Below, one piece after another: positions 4,993 through 13,065 of a DNA stretch of 20,633 nucleotides (positions are counted from its first letter, which is position 1; the number at the start of each line of letters is the position of its first letter). A program made the position numbers and the translations under genes. The notes under the pieces are model-generated. The model had not been told where the DNA came from and searched no databases. It worked only from the letters and a program-made list of their open reading frames with translations. Source of the stretch: Anaerolineae bacterium (lineage in GTDB: Bacteria > Chloroflexota > Anaerolineae > VGOG01); NCBI GenBank assembly GCA_049589355.1, contig JBAWAP010000138.1, positions 1 to 20,633 on the forward strand, written 5' to 3'.

Positions 4993-6000
4993 TCAGCTTA
5001 TCACAAAGGTACCACACCCAAAGTGGGTTTGCTTTCCGATGTGGAGGATAGATGCCAACTCAAGATAAGGGATGATGGGATGGGGGATAGACGGAAAGGT
5101 TTGTGTGCCTATCCAACGCCCTGGCCAAGTCTTGGGGGCCGGCTTGAGCCTTTTATGATGAACGGGAATGCGGGAGGCCTGTTCCATAACAGCCTGGAAG
5201 GATGCCTGTTCCTCCGCGCTCAAAACATCCCACACATCGTCGGGCTTGTGGTGTTTGCCCGGCAATAGTAGACTCATCCGGGCTATCAAGGACTCCAGTA
5301 TACTCTGTAAGGTTGGCACTTGATGAGCAGGTGTTCTATTTCGATCACGTCGTCGGTCAGTTTGGTCTTCATGGCCGGCCAAATCAAAAGGTGTTAGCCA
5401 GGTCAGACGGTCGAATATACGCTCTGGGCCTAAGTCAAAACTCAATCCTTCAGCCCATTGGACGGGGGTCGCGTGATAGCTCAGATCCAGTCGCCCGTCA
5501 CTCACGACAGGCTCCCAACGAGGTCCCCGCGCCACATAAACTGCATGGATGTCGAATCGGCCCCAGAGGACGTTCTGGCGCTGCCATTGCGGATCAGAAA
5601 CACTCCCTGCCTCCTCCAGGGCCGGCAAGATAACTTCTAGAAAAAGTCCATGATCTGCGCTCTCCCCCATCAGTTTGAGTTCCCATAGAATCAGCTCTTC
5701 CTGTCCATAGGTCTGCTTGCCCGGATAAACAAACAGTACCGCTTCAATCGGCCACGATCCTTCTGGCATCGTAGCAGGCTTTTTCTTCCCTAAAAGTGAG
5801 ATTCCACCGTATTCATCCCAGGGGGCCAGGGCTTTGTGCCAGGGACGGGCTTGATGAGTTGGAAGGCGGTTGGCAATCATGGTCCCCAGAACCAAGGAGA
5901 TCTCTGCGGATAGACATCTCGGCAACCGGACCAGCGAGCTATTGACCCGACACGCAAACAGATAACGGATGAGTTTAATAGGTTTGATAAAAGGCCACAT
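4993..6000 (-). CDS. RAMP-like protein with a C-terminal Cas6-type glycine-rich loop (putative Cas6-like RNA endonuclease), last gene of the RAMP island
   Basis: C-terminus ...LASILHIGKQTHFGCGTFVIS* (nt 5014-5046 encode HIGKQTHFGCG). This fits the Cas6 G-rich loop consensus G-h-G-[KR]-x-[TS]-x-h-G-h-G placed about 6 aa from the C-terminus. The start is uncertain: the ATG at 6000 overlaps the stop of the upstream gene by 26 nt (translational coupling) and is preferred over 6063 and 5880; none has a good SD. The 5' part of the gene has visibly lower GC (about 40% at 6001-6060). Confidence 0.45.
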   Translation of the reverse strand: MWPFIKPIKLIRYLFACRVNSSLVRLPRCLSAEISLVLGTMIANRLPTHQARPWHKALAPWDEYGGISLLGKKKPATMPEGSWPIEAVLFVYPGKQTYGQEELILWELKLMGESADHGLFLEVILPALEEAGSVSDPQWQRQNVLWGRFDIHAVYVARGPRWEPVVSDGRLDLSYHATPVQWAEGLSFDLGPERIFDRLTWLTPFDLAGHEDQTDRRRDRNRTPAHQVPTLQSILESLIARMSLLLPGKHHKPDDVWDVLSAEEQASFQAVMEQASRIPVHHKRLKPAPKTWPGRWIGTQTFPSIPHPIIPYLELASILHIGKQTHFGCGTFVIS

Positions 6001-6859
6001 AATCAACAAGCTCGTATAACAATTTGATTCGATTCTTAGGCCACTGTCGAATTCTCCAGGCATTCAGCATATCTTTGGCCTCCTGACTCAAGAACCCCAT
6101 AAATCTTCCCCAGTAAAACTGTTCCTCGCTGGTGTCCTCCAGATTCAGTAACTCGTAGAGCGACTCTTGTTCTGTGGGGCGCAAGATTGTCCGAAAGACC
6201 GCTGCCATTTCTAGCACGCTCAAGAATTCAGAAACTTCAAAGGTGAGCAATCCCTGTTGGTCCCGGGTATGGGGTTTCAGGATCTGATAGGGCGCAGAAT
6301 AGAATCGAACACGCAGTTGATCCATGGGAAACCGTGCCTCATGATGGATAGCTCTGCAGAGGACATCTCCCATACCTATCTTTTTCCCCCCTCCCGCGGT
6401 GGGAAGTACTTGGACAAGCCCCTTCAGGTCAGATCCGTGGTAGATGACGAGCTCCTGTAGCCAAGGCTTTAGCTCGCGTCTGGGCATCATCAGCAGAAAA
6501 TGGTTCTCGTCATGGACATAAGCGCCCAAGACGTGGTGATCATAAAATCCTTCACCCATTCGAAGCAACTTCGACAAGCGATTGACAAAACCCCAGATGA
6601 CGATGGATTGACGGGAGATTCTGCCCAGCTTGCGGGCTCTGGACAGAATGGCCTGGCATGATTGGCAGTAATTCTGCTCCGGGGAAGATAGACGAGGATA
6701 GAGCCAGCATCGTTGGCAAGGGCCGTCAAGAGCAGAAAAAGGCGGCCCGATCTCATCCCCAGTGGGAAAGAGATCGGGCCTGGTGGCAAGATATTCCAAG
6801 GTGGCTAACAACTCGGCGCCGGTTTGAGTACGGCGCAACCAATCAAAGCCGCTTAGCAT
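5975..6859 (-). CDS. Hypothetical protein (294 aa) with an N-terminal CxxC-x13-CxxC zinc-ribbon; translationally coupled to both the upstream multi-RAMP gene and the downstream Cas6-like gene
   Basis: ATG at 6859 overlaps the stop (6843-6845) of the 1073-aa gene by 17 nt, and its own stop (5975-5977) overlaps the candidate start of the next gene. Motif GPCQRCWLYPRLSSPEQNYCQSCQ. No family recognised by eye. Confidence 0.65.
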   Translation of the reverse strand: MLSGFDWLRRTQTGAELLATLEYLATRPDLFPTGDEIGPPFSALDGPCQRCWLYPRLSSPEQNYCQSCQAILSRARKLGRISRQSIVIWGFVNRLSKLLRMGEGFYDHHVLGAYVHDENHFLLMMPRRELKPWLQELVIYHGSDLKGLVQVLPTAGGGKKIGMGDVLCRAIHHEARFPMDQLRVRFYSAPYQILKPHTRDQQGLLTFEVSEFLSVLEMAAVFRTILRPTEQESLYELLNLEDTSEEQFYWGRFMGFLSQEAKDMLNAWRIRQWPKNRIKLLYELVDYVAFYQTY

Positions 6860-9800
6860 TCAGTGCCCTATGCAATGCTGCGTGATGATAAATGACAGCG
6901 GGCTCGATCCATTCGTCAACCTGGATGGGCACACGCCAGCTCTCTTCGGGCTCGCCAGTGTACCGCTTGGCCCAGTCAATCAGGAAGCTGTCTGGGAGAA
7001 TTTGCAGGCGTAGGCTGCCAAAGCCGAGATAGCGGTTGTTGCCCATCTTGTGAGCGAGTCCCGACTCCAGTGCCACACACCACACCAACCTTTGCAGTTC
7101 TTGTTCCTCGAGGTTCCAGAAGCGGATCGTAAAACGGGCGCGCGCACCAGGGAGTATGGCCCTGAAATAACGAGCCTGGAACGTGTCGGGTTGAAAATCA
7201 TCTAGTCGCTTGACGATGGGAGCCAGTGGGGCGTGGGTAAAGAGCCGCCAGGTCTTGCCGACGAGTAACATGGCAGCAGAACTGCCCGGCATGCTTTGCC
7301 ATTGAACTCCGGTGTACTGCCACTCACCGTAGGGATATGGTACTTTGAACCAGGCCAGTTCGGGTTTCTCGAACAGACCAAAGCTGAAAGACAAGCGCCC
7401 CATGATAGCCTGATCTGGACCCGTTCCCACCCAGCCGAACAGGCTATCTGACGGGTTCAAACGGCTAATGTCGGGGCTTGGCTCACGGGAATCGCTGGCA
7501 ATGGAATAGATGTGGCGTAGCATCCCCTTGATGCTCCGGCTGGAGAGCGCATAGACTTTGTTGGAACCTCGGTGGGCGGCCTCAGGAGGGGCCATGGCGA
7601 AGAAGTCCCAGCCATTGACGGGCCCATCGTCCAGGGTGGTTTTGAACGACGGTTCGCCGCTCTCTTGTATGTGAAGGGGGGTCAGGACCTCTGCCTCCAC
7701 GGCCAGCGTGCCACAATAGCCGCCGAAAGCCCGGTGCGAGATAAAGCCGGCACTGGCCCTGGGTGGTGTTGGGGAGACTTCTTGCTCGGGAGCGAGGGGG
7801 TAGATGGTCTGCAAGGCTTTGGTGGCTGCATCGCCCTCAAGGTCCAGTCTCTGCCAAATGCCATCCTGCGTCAGCGTCTGTTTTCCAAACAACTTCTCTC
7901 CCACACCGTCCGGATCCGCCGTTAGCCACGTGAGCTTGGACACATCCGCCTTAACCCAACCGAAACCGCTGGTCTTTTCACCGCCCAAGGGGATGTCGCC
8001 CCTTTGAAAATCCTGGAGCAAATGGGCCATTAGAGAAATCACTTCCAAGTCTTGCTCTTCAATGTCCTGAACATCCAACTGGAGTTGGAATGCAAGTTGA
8101 TCTCCATAGGCAAAGAGATAGTCGTGCTTGGCGGCCTCTATCGGCTGTCCCGTTTTGGGATCCATCTTGACCCCATCCATAGAGCACCATGCGCGTTCCG
8201 GATCCAGCGGGTCTGTGAGATAGGCGTCGGAGAAAAAGATCAGCCCCCGTTGCCCTTGAGTGCCAAAGAGACGGTTCAGCACCTCGGTGGTCTTGAGGGA
8301 CTCACCCCACAGGGTTCCTAGCACCTGCGAGGCGCGTTTTCTGAAAGCTCCTTTGATCGTGCTGCCGGGGATATAGATCTCCCAAGCTCCTTGCTCTTGC
8401 GAGGATGGCGACCACGCTAACATGCGCATGAACATGGTATCGTAGGGCTTGCCATACTTGCGGGATATCTCTCGATTGGACACGCCGCCAGCCCGAAAAT
8501 CAATGTGGTGGGGCTGGGCCAGTTCCTGGCGAGTACGATCACGATGGGCCTTGAGAAAGGCGATGAAGTTCTCGTCGTTGGTGATGCTTTTATTCAGGTT
8601 CCTGGGATGTAATATATGGCGGAATTGCACTCGACGGTGGGCATCAACGAACTCCCTCCATGTTGCAGGACGGATACCCTCTGGAACCAGGTCCGGGGCG
8701 CCCCACTGGTACTCGTCAATCTCGCCCTGGAGCAACATAGTTTTTATTCGTATGTGTTCCTCGCGGGTTGCGATCTCCGCCTCCACCCAGGCGTCGCTCT
8801 GCAGCAACCGGATTTGTTGATCCACCTGTTGGTAGAGGCGGGGGAGGACCTTCTGGCACGCGGGGGCCAGAATCTGTACCAGGGCCGCTTCGCTTTGAAT
8901 CTGCTCGGCGAGACGGTCGGCCAGCGCGACGTCTAGCCCCAGGCCATTGGCAATCTCTAGCCAAGCTTCGTAATTGAGCTGTTCGCTGGCCCGGCGCTGG
9001 CTCACCATAACCTTGAGGATACGTTTAGCCATGTTGGCCTTTTCCCCCAGGGCCTCCCTGAATGCGGCATCGGCCGCTTCTTTGCTGGAGAAAGGCTGCT
9101 CGACCAAAGGTTGAATTTGGGCAAGTACCGTTTTGGAGAGAGCATATTTCCCCTTGCCTAACTTAGCCACGGCTGCAGCCGGCAAAACCCAAACTTCGAC
9201 TTCCCCGATAGATTGCTCCCTCAGCCAAATGGCGATGATTCTCCGAAGATACTCGGCGAACTTTCGCTTCCAATCTTCCGGGCTGAGGATCGGTCCTGCC
9301 AGCCCCAGCGCCAGTCGCTCACGAATGGGGTCTGGCAGATCGCGCATCGTCTCTACCAGCAAGCGGCCCTCAATAGCAGCAAAGGAAGGCACCTCAGGGT
9401 CCACCTTGCCCCAGTTCCAGCCGACCAGAACGGGGTTCGTGGCATTAAAGGTCAAGCCCATCCTCAAATGATTGGCCCCAGGATGCAGGCGGGAAGGTGT
9501 TTCGGGTGCTGAGAACGGAAGGTCCATTTCAAGGCGAATGCGCCCCAATCCTTTGCTCTTGCCAGCCCCGAACCAGAAGCGTCCTTCTTGCAGTTCTCTT
9601 AGGGCGTAGTACAGGTGGGCGGCGTTTTCGCCTTGCTGCAGGAGCGACTCATTTACAGACAAGGTGAGATCGAAAACGGAGTTGCGAAACAACGTTTCCA
9701 TTTTGTAATTGGCGTTCGCTATCGCAGCCCAGCGGTCATCGTCCAACTTTATGCCCATGCGCAAGTCAAAGAAGCGATCCCGAGGATAACTCTCTTCCTG

Positions 9801-10064
9801 CAATTTGCACTCTACCCTAGTAATGAGCCCTTTCGGCATGGTCGAGTCGTATAATCGCAACCACATCCGGTCAAGCAGGCCAATGTTCTCGCCACGGCGC
9901 GATTGGCCGATGAAGGCATCCATCAAGGACTCAGCCGTACCCGCGATTTCCCCCGCCAGAGAGACCAGGCGATGGGTCCCGTCTCCATCTCTTGTGAACA
10001 GGGTCTTGCGTGCATTCCCTCTATAAATCGGGGATTCCGCATAAAGTTTACCTTTCAGAATCAT
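6843..10064 (-). CDS. Single-polypeptide multi-RAMP effector: three Cas7-type (Csm3/Cmr4-like) RAMP domains plus an inserted roughly 300-aa alpha-helical (Cas11-like?) region. A gRAMP / Cas7-11-like protein, but much smaller (1073 aa)
   Basis: Domain 1 (aa about 1-185): LKGKLYAESPIYRGN (compare with Cas7 beta1 'tPLHIGsG') and the G-rich loop FGAGKSKGLGRIRLE (nt 9543-9569). Domain 2 (aa about 515-705): PHHIDFRAGG, IPGSTIKGAFR (nt 8340-8372, the textbook IPGSS.KGalR loop of Csm3/Cmr4), LFG, and the G-rich loop LGGEKTSGFGWVKA (nt 7959-7988). Domain 3 (aa about 785-1030): LTPLHIQESG (nt 7656-7682), ALSSRSIKGMLR (7515-7544), LFGWVG, YLGFGSLRL (7011-7031). AGGAGG RBS 4 nt upstream of the ATG at 10064. 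Confidence 0.8.
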   Translation of the reverse strand: MILKGKLYAESPIYRGNARKTLFTRDGDGTHRLVSLAGEIAGTAESLMDAFIGQSRRGENIGLLDRMWLRLYDSTMPKGLITRVECKLQEESYPRDRFFDLRMGIKLDDDRWAAIANANYKMETLFRNSVFDLTLSVNESLLQQGENAAHLYYALRELQEGRFWFGAGKSKGLGRIRLEMDLPFSAPETPSRLHPGANHLRMGLTFNATNPVLVGWNWGKVDPEVPSFAAIEGRLLVETMRDLPDPIRERLALGLAGPILSPEDWKRKFAEYLRRIIAIWLREQSIGEVEVWVLPAAAVAKLGKGKYALSKTVLAQIQPLVEQPFSSKEAADAAFREALGEKANMAKRILKVMVSQRRASEQLNYEAWLEIANGLGLDVALADRLAEQIQSEAALVQILAPACQKVLPRLYQQVDQQIRLLQSDAWVEAEIATREEHIRIKTMLLQGEIDEYQWGAPDLVPEGIRPATWREFVDAHRRVQFRHILHPRNLNKSITNDENFIAFLKAHRDRTRQELAQPHHIDFRAGGVSNREISRKYGKPYDTMFMRMLAWSPSSQEQGAWEIYIPGSTIKGAFRKRASQVLGTLWGESLKTTEVLNRLFGTQGQRGLIFFSDAYLTDPLDPERAWCSMDGVKMDPKTGQPIEAAKHDYLFAYGDQLAFQLQLDVQDIEEQDLEVISLMAHLLQDFQRGDIPLGGEKTSGFGWVKADVSKLTWLTADPDGVGEKLFGKQTLTQDGIWQRLDLEGDAATKALQTIYPLAPEQEVSPTPPRASAGFISHRAFGGYCGTLAVEAEVLTPLHIQESGEPSFKTTLDDGPVNGWDFFAMAPPEAAHRGSNKVYALSSRSIKGMLRHIYSIASDSREPSPDISRLNPSDSLFGWVGTGPDQAIMGRLSFSFGLFEKPELAWFKVPYPYGEWQYTGVQWQSMPGSSAAMLLVGKTWRLFTHAPLAPIVKRLDDFQPDTFQARYFRAILPGARARFTIRFWNLEEQELQRLVWCVALESGLAHKMGNNRYLGFGSLRLQILPDSFLIDWAKRYTGEPEESWRVPIQVDEWIEPAVIYHHAALHRALNAKRL

Positions 10065-10174: not shown

Positions 10175-10203
10175 ATTGTACATCAAAGTTGGACACCGGT
10201 CAA
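10175..10203 (-). promoter_or_regulatory. Near-consensus sigma70-type promoter for the multi-RAMP operon: TTGACC-17-TACAAT on the minus strand
   Basis: Minus-strand read ...tttgaccggtgtccaactttgatgtacaatatgg... The -35 is at 10198-10203, the -10 at 10175-10180, and the spacer is exactly 17 nt. The predicted TSS is near 10168, leaving a roughly 100-nt leader before the ATG at 10064. Confidence 0.5.
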
Positions 10204-10249
10204 ATCACCACGAAACTCGGACCTTAACTGTACCTGCACACTGGGCAAG

Positions 10250-11311
10250 CTATGGAGATTCGGCTGGCTTTTGCACTCTGCCCCATTGTCCCTCTCCACC
10301 CTTTATGTCAAATCTTATGCCCAGGAACTGCTCTACCACCCAAACATTGGTCAACAAGTGCATGGTGATTTCGCAAGTGGTAAAAGCTGACGGGCCAGGG
10401 GCCAGAGCCATAGGGAGAATCAACTGATCGGCGAGGTGCTTGTCTAAGCAGGCACCGCTCTGGTGATACTCTATGAATTCGCGGCAAGCTTCCTCAGCCA
10501 CCTTCTCGGCAGGCTTGCCGCGCTCTCCCAGAGACGAGAAGCCGGCCACCGCGTGCTCATACTCGGCTGCAAGAAAGACGACGGTACCCTGGCCTGGTGA
10601 GGGAGCATCAACGATCTCGATCTGAGGGTCGAAGCCGCGCTTCCGCAGGCATTCCTCCGCTCGCTTCTTTTGCCTCTGACCAACGTGAGCAGGTAGGTTC
10701 GAGGTAGCGGAGATTCCCCAGAGGCGCTTCAATTCACCCCGTTCGACCAAATCCAGGCCAGATAGATAGCTTTCCTTTCGGCCCCTGATCAAGGCAGTCA
10801 TCTCCCCCCCACCTATCGGGTACCAACCCCACCTCTCGATCTCGGCTCTCGTTTCGACTCCCATGTATGCCAGGGTAGGCAGGTAGACGTGCCTGAGGTA
10901 GTGAAAGGGGGGGCTCCAGGCTACGTGGGTGCCACCACGCATCGTCAGGCGGGATTGGCCGGGAGCGAAAGCCAAGGGCAGCAGCAGGGTCTGGAAGACC
11001 AAGCTGGTTGCGCCAGCGCTGCCGCCTTTGCGGGCCTCGGCTACATCGAAAGAGTATTCCCCAGCCCGAGGTGACGACAGAGGCCTGAAAGTCAGGGTTA
11101 GCGAGCCCAACTCTGCACCCTCTAGCTCAGCATCGCAGATTTGAGCTATCGCCCGAGCCCCTGTGAGGTGTTGGGCCTGTAGACCAGGTTTGCGACGCTT
11201 GGCACGGATGTTCTCAATGCGCAAAGGTTCCCCCAAGAGAGCAGAAAGGGTCAAGGAGGTACGCAAGACCTGGCCACCTCCCTCGCCATAAGAGCCGTTG
11301 ATAACTATCAT
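10250..11311 (-). CDS. rtcA: RNA 3'-terminal phosphate cyclase
   Basis: N-terminal INGSYGEGGGQVLRTSLTLS matches the RtcA signature DG..GEGGGQILR. HLADQLILPMALA aligns with the E. coli RtcA active-site region (YLADQLVLPMALA, catalytic His). 353 aa. No rtcB or rtcR in the window. Confidence 0.9.
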   Translation of the reverse strand: MIVINGSYGEGGGQVLRTSLTLSALLGEPLRIENIRAKRRKPGLQAQHLTGARAIAQICDAELEGAELGSLTLTFRPLSSPRAGEYSFDVAEARKGGSAGATSLVFQTLLLPLAFAPGQSRLTMRGGTHVAWSPPFHYLRHVYLPTLAYMGVETRAEIERWGWYPIGGGEMTALIRGRKESYLSGLDLVERGELKRLWGISATSNLPAHVGQRQKKRAEECLRKRGFDPQIEIVDAPSPGQGTVVFLAAEYEHAVAGFSSLGERGKPAEKVAEEACREFIEYHQSGACLDKHLADQLILPMALAPGPSAFTTCEITMHLLTNVWVVEQFLGIRFDIKGGEGQWGRVQKPAESP

Positions 11312-11344: not shown

Positions 11345-11372
11345 ACCATATCACATTATCTCCAAAAGTCAA
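11345..11372 (-). promoter_or_regulatory. Candidate sigma70 promoter for rtcA: TTGACT-16-TATGGT (minus strand), divergent from the flp promoter
   Basis: The minus strand reads ggaacTTGACTtttggagataatgtgaTATGGTattt. The -35 is at 11367-11372 and the -10 at 11345-11350. Confidence 0.45.
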
Positions 11373-11391
11373 GTTCCTGCTGTTTCCGTTT

Positions 11392-11420
11392 TTGCACTGA
11401 ACCCTACTATAGTGTATAAT
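11392..11420 (+). promoter_or_regulatory. Strong sigma70-type promoter TTGCAC-17-TATAAT driving flp-comF
   Basis: The -35 ttgcac is at 11392-11397, the -10 tataat at 11415-11420, with a 17-nt spacer, about 40 nt upstream of the Flp pilin GTG. Confidence 0.5.
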
Positions 11421-11460
11421 ATAAGGTGTATCCTTTACCACCTGAAGAGGAGGTCAATAG

Positions 11461-11613
11461 GTGATACCATTCCTATCACGCGAAGAAGGACAGGGGCTTA
11501 TTGAGTATGCCCTGATCATAGTCTTGGTGGCTATAGTCGTAATCGCTATCTTGCTGTTGCTGTGGGACAAGATCTACGAATTATTAAACCAGTTTCTCAC
11601 CTTCATCCGTTGA
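11461..11613 (+). CDS. flp: Flp/Fap family type IVb prepilin (50 aa), unannotated small ORF with GTG start
   Basis: GAGGAGG RBS 8 nt upstream of the GTG at 11461. Translation (M)IPFLSREEGQGLIEYALIIVLVAIVVIAILLLLWDKIYELLNQFLTFIR* has a leader ending in G followed by xxEY and a hydrophobic helix, which is the Flp prepilin signature (G/xxxEYALI). Missing from the ORF track (under 60 aa, GTG start). Confidence 0.7.
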   Translation: MIPFLSREEGQGLIEYALIIVLVAIVVIAILLLLWDKIYELLNQFLTFIR

Positions 11614-11636
11614 CTCGTCGTCTTCGCGCACTCACC

Positions 11637-12389
11637 ATGGGTCCCCAGTTTATAGGCCCGAAAGCTTGGTGGACCAAGGGTAACTTGACCACTGTGGATT
11701 TGGTGCAGGAAATCAAAAGAGGTCTCCTGGATTTGCTGTTCCCTCCTCGCTGCGTAGGCTGTAGAGAGACCGGGAGCTTGCTTTGCGCCAAGTGCCGCGA
11801 TGAGTTCGAGTTAGTTGAACCACCCCTCTGCCCCCACTGTGGTCGCCCCAGGAACAACGATCACCTCTGTCCCCTTTGTCAACGCGACCCTCTGCAAATA
11901 GACGGCGTTCGTTCTGTCGCCTACTTTGATGGGACCTTGCGCGAGGCCATTCACAGCTTCAAGTACTATAACCTTCAGGATCTGGCCATCCCCTTGGGAA
12001 AGTTGATGAGCAATTATTGGGAGAAGAGCCCTCTCCCTGCTGAAATCATTGTCCCCGTGCCCTTGCACATAGACCGGCTGCGCGAGCGTGGCTACAACCA
12101 GGCAGCTCTCCTGGCCAGGGAGTTCGGGAAAAGGATCGGCTTGCCCGTATTGGAGAACAGTTTGATGCGTGTGCGGGCGACTCGTCCCCAAGTAGACTTG
12201 AACGCTCAGGAGCGCAAGGAGAACGTTTGTGATGCTTTCTGCTGCTCAAATATGGAGTTGAAGGAGAAACAAGCCCTGCTGATTGACGATGTCTGCACAA
12301 CCGGAGCCACATTGGAGGCTTGTAGTATCGCCTTGCGGCAAGCGGGTGCTCGCTCCGTCTGGGCCTTCACCTTAGCCAGGGCCAGATGA
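11637..12389 (+). CDS. comF: ComF-family protein (competence protein ComFC-like phosphoribosyltransferase with an N-terminal double zinc ribbon)
   Basis: LLFPPRCVGCRETGSLLCAKCRDEF...CPHCGRPRNNDHLCPLCQ zinc ribbons plus the PRTase motif LLIDDVCTTGATL. Start taken as the ATG at 11637, immediately after the flp stop. The upstream extension to 11562 overlaps flp. Confidence 0.8.
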   Translation: MGPQFIGPKAWWTKGNLTTVDLVQEIKRGLLDLLFPPRCVGCRETGSLLCAKCRDEFELVEPPLCPHCGRPRNNDHLCPLCQRDPLQIDGVRSVAYFDGTLREAIHSFKYYNLQDLAIPLGKLMSNYWEKSPLPAEIIVPVPLHIDRLRERGYNQAALLAREFGKRIGLPVLENSLMRVRATRPQVDLNAQERKENVCDAFCCSNMELKEKQALLIDDVCTTGATLEACSIALRQAGARSVWAFTLARAR

Positions 12390-12417: not shown

Positions 12418-12448
12418 ACGAGGGGTGCCCCCTCGTTTCTCTTCTTCC
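12418..12448 (+). terminator. Rho-independent terminator after comF
   Basis: acgagggg-tgc-cccctcgt is an 8-bp GC-rich stem, followed by ttctcttcttcc. Confidence 0.6.
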
Positions 12449-12528: not shown

Positions 12529-13065
12529 ATGCAGTTGATCATCCAAGGCAAGAACATCGAAGTTACCGATCGCTTACGGGAGTACATTGAGAAGAAAGTA
12601 GGCAAGCTGGACCGCTATTTGCCCACCATAACCGAGGCGCGGATGGAACTCTCTGTTGAGAGCGCCAAGAGCGCAAAGGATCGCCAGGTAGCCCAGTTGA
12701 CAGTGCGGAGTAAGGGCACGTTTTTGCGAGCCGAGGAGAGAAGCGCTGACATGTTTACCTCGATAGACGCTATCGTGGACAAGATGTACCGCCAGATCGT
12801 TCGTTACAAGGGCAAACGCTATGGCCGAGGTCGCGGCCCGGGTGAGATACCGCCAGTGGAAGAGTTCGAGGAGGAAGCTCCACCGAACATCGTCAGGACC
12901 AAGCGTTTCCAGGTGGTCCCTATGGATGAAGAGGAGGCCATCGAGCAGATGGAGCTCTTAGGCCACGATTTCTTCGTTTTCTTCAACGTCAACACCGACG
13001 GGATAAACGTCCTTTACCGGCGCAAAGACGGCGATTATGGGCTGCTCGAGCCGGAGCTGGCGTAG
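12529..13065 (+). CDS. hpf: Ribosome hibernation promoting factor (long HPF/RaiA family)
   Basis: MQLIIQGKNIEVTDRLREYIEKKVGKLDRY... sigma54-modulation/HPF N-domain and the C-terminal dimerisation domain typical of long HPF. AAGGAAAGGAG RBS. Confidence 0.9.
   Translation: MQLIIQGKNIEVTDRLREYIEKKVGKLDRYLPTITEARMELSVESAKSAKDRQVAQLTVRSKGTFLRAEERSADMFTSIDAIVDKMYRQIVRYKGKRYGRGRGPGEIPPVEEFEEEAPPNIVRTKRFQVVPMDEEEAIEQMELLGHDFFVFFNVNTDGINVLYRRKDGDYGLLEPELA

Follow-up and report, generated by a model that had tools for sequence, protein, structure and literature searches.

A comF-linked Flp pilin gene of uncultured Anaerolineae and its relation to the tad-comFC-hpf gene string

The flp gene and its neighbour comF

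The DNA described here, contig JBAWAP010000138.1 of an Anaerolineae bacterium (Chloroflexota; assembly GCA_049589355.1), has been analysed over its whole length of 20,633 nt, referred to below as the window. It carries a small gene, flp, for a prepilin of the Flp family (type IVc or Tad pili; product MIPFLSREEGQGLIEYALIIVLVAIVVIAILLLLWDKIYELLNQFLTFIR), followed on the same strand by comF, a gene of the ComFC family, and by hpf, which encodes a ribosome hibernation promoting factor (Table 1). The original prediction, made from the letters of the window, held that a GTG-initiated open reading frame of 50 codons at this place encodes an Flp prepilin and that flp and comF belong together; the frame has been confirmed from the sequence, its family has been borne out by motif, Pfam match, and profile comparison, and the pairing has gained strong comparative support, as Tad operons end in comF across many Anaerolineae lineages. 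The gene had also been thought unannotated, which is wrong, since NCBI lists the identical product of this contig under the name 'MAG: Flp family type IVb pilin [Anaerolineae bacterium]' and its relatives bear the label 'pilus assembly protein Flp/PilA' at JGI. Taken alone, flp is an ordinary and already annotated gene; the informative part is its position.

Table 1. Coordinates of the features of the flp-comF locus and its surroundings in the window
Feature	Position	Strand	Remarks
Promoter-like site, sigma-70-type	11391..11420	+	-35 TTTGCA/TTGCAC 11391-11397; perfect -10 TATAAT 11415-11420
Ribosome-binding site (RBS) GAGGAGG	11447..11453	+	7 nt before the flp GTG, read from the sequence
flp, 50-aa Flp-family (type IVc/Tad) prepilin	11461..11613	+	Pfam, profile comparison, conservation
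flp leader MIPFLSREEG	11461-11490	+	10 residues
Predicted TadV cleavage	between 11490 and 11491	+	G/XXXXEY rule
Mature pilin, predicted	11491-11610	+	40 aa
flp hydrophobic helix	11509-11562	+	
flp divergent tail	11563-11610	+	last 16 residues
flp-comF spacer	11614..11684	+	71 nt to the first conserved comF start (83-283 nt in relatives)
comF (ComFC family)	11685..12389	+	double zinc ribbon and phosphoribosyltransferase domain; start TTG 11685, TTG 11700 or TTG 11733
Terminator-like GC-rich hairpin with T-rich tail	12418..12446	+	between comF and hpf
hpf, ribosome hibernation promoting factor	12529..13065	+	conserved downstream partner of comF; Pfam
rtcA, RNA 3'-phosphate cyclase	10250..11311	-	divergent; upstream boundary of the flp-comF unit in the clade
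Cas7-11i gRAMP	6843-10064	-	NCBIfam NF049957, 1933 bits vs cut-off 800
Cas10i	5975-6859	-	492 bits
Cas6i	4993-6063	-	318 bits

Flp prepilins are recognised by their small size (about 50-80 residues) and by a G/XXXXEY processing site ahead of ~20 hydrophobic residues (PMC4322843). The window product shows these features: within its 50 residues, the segment REEG10/QGLIEY16 (the slash marking the predicted cleavage) leads into ALIIVLVAIVVIAILLLL, an 18-residue hydrophobic stretch. Cleavage is placed at G10/Q11, two residues N-terminal to the site first proposed (G12/L13), because of the G/XXXXEY rule and the register of two Tad pilins in their mature form, 8u1k (Caulobacter PilA) and 8u2b ('Flp family type IVb pilin'); these are the top PDB matches, and their residues 3-6 (AIEY) pair with query residues 13-16, the weak E-values (0.3-0.8) being due to the extreme shortness of the sequences. 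The Pfam family Flp_Fap (PF04964) is matched by the product (E=1.5e-6, 28.3 bits) and by all 12 tested members of the subfamily delimited below (best E-value 7.2e-7), in every case under the gathering score of 32.2, a shortfall attributed to a divergent tail; the Flp protein of a tad operon, at locus L031, scores 35.8 bits. Profile comparison (hhalign) of the subfamily with the Flp genes of tad operons gives a probability of 99.3%, E=3e-20, and 62% identity over 45 columns, placing it among the homologues of Flp genes inside tad loci.

Canonical Chloroflexota Flp proteins end in ...LLLLGPQIGNVFSxI, whereas the comF-linked subfamily ends in ...LLLL[S/W/G]D.I..[W/L]L.Q...FI[S/R]; this tail, WDKIYELLNQFLTFIR in the window and SDVIEDWLNQ..FIS in relatives, stands where the canonical LGPQIGNVFS motif would be in all ~90 members. 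The latter are distinct metagenome relatives with 70-98% identity to the window product, nearly all of exactly 50 aa, and G10, Q11, G12, E15, and Y16 (that is, Gly-1, Gln1, Gly2, Glu5, and Tyr6) are invariant across the subfamily. Residues 1-34 are without change among close relatives, synonymous codon changes with respect to the window exceed non-synonymous ones (12 vs 5 in the related locus L002, 13 vs 5 in L008), and the replacements fall almost entirely within the last 16 residues, with one more at residue 28 in L008. As judged from these comparisons, flp is under protein-level selection and is a genuine, expressed-looking Flp (Tad, type IVc) prepilin gene of an uncultured Anaerolineae clade, and the remodelled 16-residue C-terminal tail can be taken to define a comF-linked Flp subfamily.

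The signals upstream of flp include TTGCAC (11392-11397), a 17-nt spacer, and TATAAT (11415-11420), from which a strong promoter had been predicted. These elements are present, and the -10 box is perfect and conserved, being kept with its flanks (CTATAGTGTATAAT) in eight of nine clade members, as are the RBS and the GTG start; the -35 element is mediocre, and the description 'strong promoter' has therefore given way to a perfect, conserved -10 with a mediocre -35. A consensus scan reads the site as TTTGCA-18-TATAAT (10/12 matches) and places it at the top of four promoter-like sites in 2.2 kb (shuffles, 1.0 +/- 1.1), while the relatives stay under the scan threshold because their -35 is merely TTGCGC. 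An extended -10 was considered for this promoter and rejected, no TG being found at -15/-14. The GAGGAGG of the RBS, likewise part of the original prediction, is indeed there; it is unchanged among the six close relatives aligned and in L173, and reads CAGGAGG or TAGGAGG in L169-L171. The intergenic region is common to flp and the divergent rtcA, for which it holds a promoter-like site of its own (11345-11372, minus strand; TTGACT-16-TATGGT with TG in front) that is kept in L002 and L173.

ComFC proteins combine a zinc finger with a phosphoribosyltransferase (PRT) domain and handle single-stranded DNA (ssDNA) (PMC9005727). The N-terminal part of the window ComF contains a zinc-binding module of the Cys4 type (DZR_2, E=3.6e-13, above cut-off), with eight cysteines that are invariant across the ComF alignment, and its C-terminal part is a type I PRT domain with a phosphoribosyl pyrophosphate (PRPP) loop (LLIDDVCTTGATL), matching Pribosyltran just under the cut-off (E=4e-5, 23.4 bits vs 26.3). 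Against solved structures, a profile of the ComF alignment retrieves only generic PRT enzymes (PRPP synthetases, PurF) at E ~1e-6, over the LLIDDVxTTGATL loop, and a phmmer search with ComF gives no significant match. The top NCBIfam matches also lie below their cut-offs (TIGR00201 comF, 105.5 bits vs 233.55; GntX NF008616, 114 vs 304), and by its architecture the window ComF is classed as a divergent family member, not an equivalog.

The distance between the two genes is set by the translation start of comF. Every clade member has TTG 11685 (234 aa) and TTG 11733 (218 aa), and most have TTG 11700 (229 aa), and the spacer measures 71-119 nt in the window and 83-331 nt in relatives. A comF start 24 nt past the flp stop, as originally predicted, needs ATG 11637, which is found in the window alone; L171 has GTG there, and five relatives have an in-frame stop past this position. 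ATG 11637 is thus window-specific and probably not the comF start, and translational coupling across 24 nt, a spacing that is a longest-frame artefact of the window, has been rejected for want of a conserved ATG. No terminator-like site was detected by a scan of the spacer in the window, L002, L008, and L173, and the sole plus-strand terminator-like site from the flp promoter to hpf is the hairpin after comF; co-transcription of flp and comF is therefore plausible. Folding of the window spacer reveals nothing unusual (z = +1.3), and an Rfam scan of the whole window matched no RNA family. The spacers of L002 and L008 carry inserts that the window does not have (about 200 nt in L002, region 1500-1740; about 100 nt in L008, region 10200-10330); the L002 insert, which contains a long, nearly perfect hairpin (CTTGTCCTGGACC...GGTCCAGGACAGG) without a T-tract, may be a small mobile or repetitive element, and the L002 spacer stretch folds in a weakly unusual manner overall (z = -1.7).

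Linkage of comF with tad genes in Anaerolineae

All members of the flp subfamily that were looked up share the gene string rtcA (minus strand), flp, comF, hpf, LMW-PTP, HNH, GT2, and GT2 (the last three on the minus strand), and the fixed flp-comF context holds from 98% down to 73% identity in several metagenome-assembled genomes (MAGs) and metagenomes. Beyond this clade, a scan of GTDB species genomes with the Flp alignment yielded at least 80 flp loci, each viewed with its context of +/-10 kb. Among the matches listed, there is one full-length orthologue of the window flp (L009, on the L008 contig), most flp genes are orphans (66 of 80 loci have no tad gene in this context), and comF lies directly after tadC wherever the 3' flank of a tad locus can be seen (five of five), namely four from Ardenticatenaceae MAGs, where hpf comes after comF, and one from an Anaerolineales MAG. 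By Pfam, the order at L031 is LuxR-type response regulator, histidine kinase, Flp, TadZ (REC+ParA), TadA (T2SSE), TadB, TadC (T2SSF), ComF, and HPF.

A second collection, sampled from JGI metagenomes, comprises at least 80 comF loci; they resemble a single ComF, by which they were selected, are not phylogenetically independent, and were annotated by iterative local profile searches seeded from L031 and spot-checked by Pfam; 61 of the loci listed have enough upstream sequence to be informative. Immediately upstream of comF, tadB-tadC (plus tadZ-tadA where visible) occur in 19 of these and flp in three, so that adjacency of comF to tadC or flp accounts for 22; in five others, tadABC lie within 2.2 kb of comF and a second T2SSE ATPase stands between comF and hpf. 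As 34 of the 61 loci have neither tad nor flp upstream of comF, the linkage is frequent, not universal. When the listed ComF proteins are clustered at 70% identity, 22 clusters are tadC-linked, three flp-linked, and 28 unlinked, and tadC-comF adjacency can be traced down to about 39% ComF identity. A CpaF homologue search with two context look-ups, aimed at the Tad ATPase of the window clade, led to other lineages only, all of them tad-comF; two more MAGs reached in this way have the order TadE-TadG-RcpC-TadZ-TadA-TadB-TadC-ComF, followed by HPF in GCA_003695545.1. Taken together, these gene orders associate tad and flp genes with com (DNA-uptake) genes and show a tad-comFC(-hpf) string that is widespread and deeply conserved in Anaerolineae; the place held by flp in the window is taken by (rcpC-)tadZ-tadA-tadB-tadC in many other members of the class and in other Chloroflexota. 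The linkage seems undescribed, no open-access paper or bioRxiv preprint having been found that links comF or comFC with tadC, tadZ, or cpaF as neighbours.

The window arrangement appears to be a derived form of this string. The nearest outgroup by ComF identity among the loci listed (L093, 66%) has, by Pfam, the order RcpC/CpaB, TadZ, TadA, TadB, TadC, a 227-nt gap, comF, and hpf, and continues past hpf, after one intervening stretch, with LMW-PTP, HNH, GT2, and GT2 (the last three on the minus strand), which is the downstream synteny of the window. The next-nearest loci with enough upstream sequence (54-60% ComF identity) are tadC-comF too, with the exceptions of L094, which has no tad or flp gene there, and L102, in which a LuxR-type regulator, flp, comF, and hpf follow one another and flp abuts the longest comF reading frame without a gap. 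Because L093 and the next-nearest loci other than L094 and L102 carry tad genes at this place, with L093 also sharing the synteny, the window clade is best read as a reduced or rearranged derivative of the widespread tad-comFC-hpf string, from which tadZABC would have been lost from the site upstream of comF or moved elsewhere; tblastn of TadZ, TadA, TadB, and TadC against the window and its relatives found no remnants of these genes. The flp-comF lineages (the window clade, L102, and L139) stand separately inside one large ComF group whose other informative members are all tadC-linked, and flp-comF adjacency has accordingly been reconstructed as having arisen at least three times independently.

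Several further observations concern the surroundings of comF. Two tad/flp-comF loci that are unrelated to each other (L031, 8013-9830; L102, 2-727) encode a LuxR-type response regulator ahead of flp, accompanied in L031 by a DegS-like histidine kinase; the regulator, which has no counterpart in the window, is a candidate for controlling the expression of pili and competence. In one comF lineage (L143, L144, L152, L154, and L155), comF is flanked by pilus genes on both sides, as a second T2SSE-family ATPase (e.g., L144 10707-11843, 378 aa; Pfam T2SSE E=1.9e-60) stands between comF and hpf and tadA-tadB-tadC stand about 2 kb upstream; pilus retraction could be the dedicated task of this additional ATPase. 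Conservation is also strong for the comF-hpf pairing as such, which combines a DNA-uptake protein with a ribosome hibernation factor: of 68 informative metagenome loci, 40 have hpf no more than 1.4 kb past comF. In eight of the 34 unlinked loci (L092, L105, L107, L110, L126, L133, L134, and L135), a homologous gene of ~200 aa precedes comF, and the one product tested, from L092, is a LigT/ThpR-like 2',3'-cyclic phosphodiesterase (LigT_PEase E=1.4e-30); with RtcA in the window clade, RNA-end-processing genes thus recur beside comF-hpf.

On its other side, rtcA adjoins a compact type III-I CRISPR-Cas effector module (window 4993-10064, minus strand; Table 1), and no CRISPR array was found in the window. 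The module is present in L003, L169, L171, and L173 and absent from L005-L008, and is therefore regarded as an insertion of variable occurrence, bounded by rtcA on one side and by the L9 region or histidine ammonia-lyase gene on the other.

A proposed Tad pilus/ComFC role in DNA uptake and its alternatives

Gene order conserved to such depth usually signifies functional coupling, an established principle, and the tad-comF comparisons support a functional link between the Tad pilus and ComFC. This conservation, the precedents of Micrococcus luteus and Liberibacter crescens described below, and the role of ComFC on ssDNA together suggest that Tad pili function in DNA uptake in these bacteria, with pili capturing and retracting DNA and ComFC acting downstream, while the invariance of the residues needed for cleavage and assembly argues that the Flp peptide is still processed and polymerised. 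The explanation that we favour, whose chance of being right as a whole we put slightly above even, is that flp encodes a real Flp prepilin within a reduced variant of the tad-comFC-hpf string and that the Tad pilus and ComFC act in DNA uptake. With tadZABC lost or relocated, a pilin gene with its own promoter would now precede comF; the Tad pilus would be the organelle of DNA capture and retraction, and ComFC would handle the incoming ssDNA at the membrane. Both genes would probably be read from the conserved promoter upstream of flp, resulting in co-expression of pilin and ComFC, and the window clade would encode the assembly machine and TadV elsewhere in its genome, just as tadV is unlinked to tad loci in Actinobacteria (PMC4322843).

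A number of findings weigh against this explanation. Over the 20.6 kb of the window, and over +/-10 kb in relatives, neither a tad gene nor a prepilin peptidase gene occurs. The 34 unlinked comF loci count in the same direction, as does the fact that ComF-family proteins are also present in bacteria that are not known as transformable. The spacer varies from 71 to about 300 nt, with inserted structured DNA in some relatives, and comF may have its own promoter, since its 5' end contains, or closely follows, TTGACC and a Shine-Dalgarno-like AGAGG. Lastly, the scores of Flp and ComF fall short of curated Pfam and NCBIfam cut-offs, and the non-canonical pilin tail could mean an altered function.

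Some of these points would fit an ordinary orphan pilin, an account that we consider rather doubtful: flp would be one of several scattered Flp genes for adhesion or motility pili, comF-hpf would be a housekeeping pair, and the two would be inherited neighbours with separate transcripts and no shared role in DNA uptake. Most flp genes of the class are orphans, comF often stands without tad or flp, comF and hpf stay adjacent by themselves, the spacer is variable and at times long, with insertions, and motility and adhesion are the functions considered to date for Chloroflexota Tad pili (PMC7332563, PMC11653643). Mere neighbourhood is weighed against by the persistence of tadC-comF in 22 clusters and down to a ComF identity of about 39%, by at least three independent origins of flp-comF (gapless in L102 with respect to the longest comF frame), by a lineage that has comF between tadABC and a second T2SSE ATPase, and by the finding that the window Flp subfamily occurs, among the members looked up, next to comF only.

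That exclusive association would also be expected if the peptide had been exapted, as an Flp-derived protein uncoupled from pilus assembly, whose amphipathic, remodelled C-terminal tail would be the surface by which it binds ComFC/ComEC as a small partner in the membrane. The replacement of LGPQIGNVFS throughout the subfamily, the Pfam scores under the gathering threshold, and the lack of tad genes nearby (in the window and within +/-10 kb in relatives) agree with such a protein, which would make a pilin derivative part of the cytoplasmic-membrane step of DNA translocation and not a subunit of a filament. A mere transmembrane anchor would not be expected to retain the short leader and the invariant Gly-1, Glu5, and Tyr6, and we regard exaptation as improbable. 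Least credible of all, with hardly any weight given to it, is a decaying remnant of a deleted tad operon, kept solely for the promoter that drives comF-hpf. Such a remnant would account for the absence of tadZABC where the nearest outgroups have these genes and for the conserved flp promoter and RBS, but the frame is intact at 50 aa in nearly all ~90 variants, purifying selection on the protein is indicated by mostly synonymous DNA changes and by a constant N-terminal stretch of 34 residues, and frameshifted or truncated flp copies have not been seen.

Chloroflexota abound in sediments, soils, and wastewater plants, but few can be grown readily and genetic tools for them are nearly absent; to our knowledge, natural transformation has not been described for the phylum, and we know of no cultured member of the window clade. 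Chloroflexota genomes encode Tad pili, not type IVa pili (PMC7332563). The placement of comFC as the last gene of Tad operons, or of a dedicated pilin before comFC, is a concrete and testable sign that Tad pili are the DNA-uptake organelle of the phylum. If a joint role of Tad pilus and ComFC is correct, ComFC would be an integral, co-transcribed member of Tad operons across Anaerolineae and the Tad pilus would be the competence pilus of Chloroflexota, which would extend the Flp-dependent transformation of Micrococcus and Liberibacter and help to single out strains with a possible capacity for natural transformation. A candidate competence-specific pilin is offered by the comF-linked Flp subfamily and its remodelled tail.

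Comparison with known systems

The window Flp resembles Flp1 of Aggregatibacter actinomycetemcomitans, PilA of Caulobacter crescentus (8u1k), and 8u2b in its small prepilin size, its short leader and G/XXXXEY site, Glu5/Tyr6, and an N-terminal hydrophobic helix of ~20 residues; unlike these major pilins of Flp/Tad systems, it has a non-canonical tail, a gene outside a tad locus, and a Pfam score under the threshold. In M. luteus, Flp pili are required for natural transformation (PMC4322843; Angelov et al. 2015), a role shown by knockouts and with tad loci not reported beside comF, whereas the link described here is one of gene position, tad or flp being physically joined to comFC. In L. crescens, DNA is taken up by CpaF-driven Tad pili, and ComEC and ComF act downstream (PMC8513845); unlike the window with its flp-comF pair, this diderm alphaproteobacterium has comF at a separate locus. 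The window ComF shares an N-terminal Cys-rich zinc module, a type I PRT domain, and the LLIDDVxTTGATL loop with the ComFC proteins of Helicobacter pylori, Bacillus subtilis, and Streptococcus pneumoniae (PMC9005727, PMC12663950), from which it differs by a double zinc ribbon (8 Cys), the lack of a ComFA/ComFB partner in the locus, and scores below the NCBIfam cut-offs. Further parallels are the tad-comFC-hpf loci of other Anaerolineae (e.g., L031 of Ardenticatenaceae, L093, L175, and L176), whose ComF and HPF are orthologous to those of the window, and the downstream neighbours of the window (LMW-PTP and two GT2 genes) recur in L093, L111, and L045. The difference lies upstream of comF, where those loci have (rcpC-)tadZ-tadA-tadB-tadC directly before the gene and the window clade has flp only, after a divergent rtcA.

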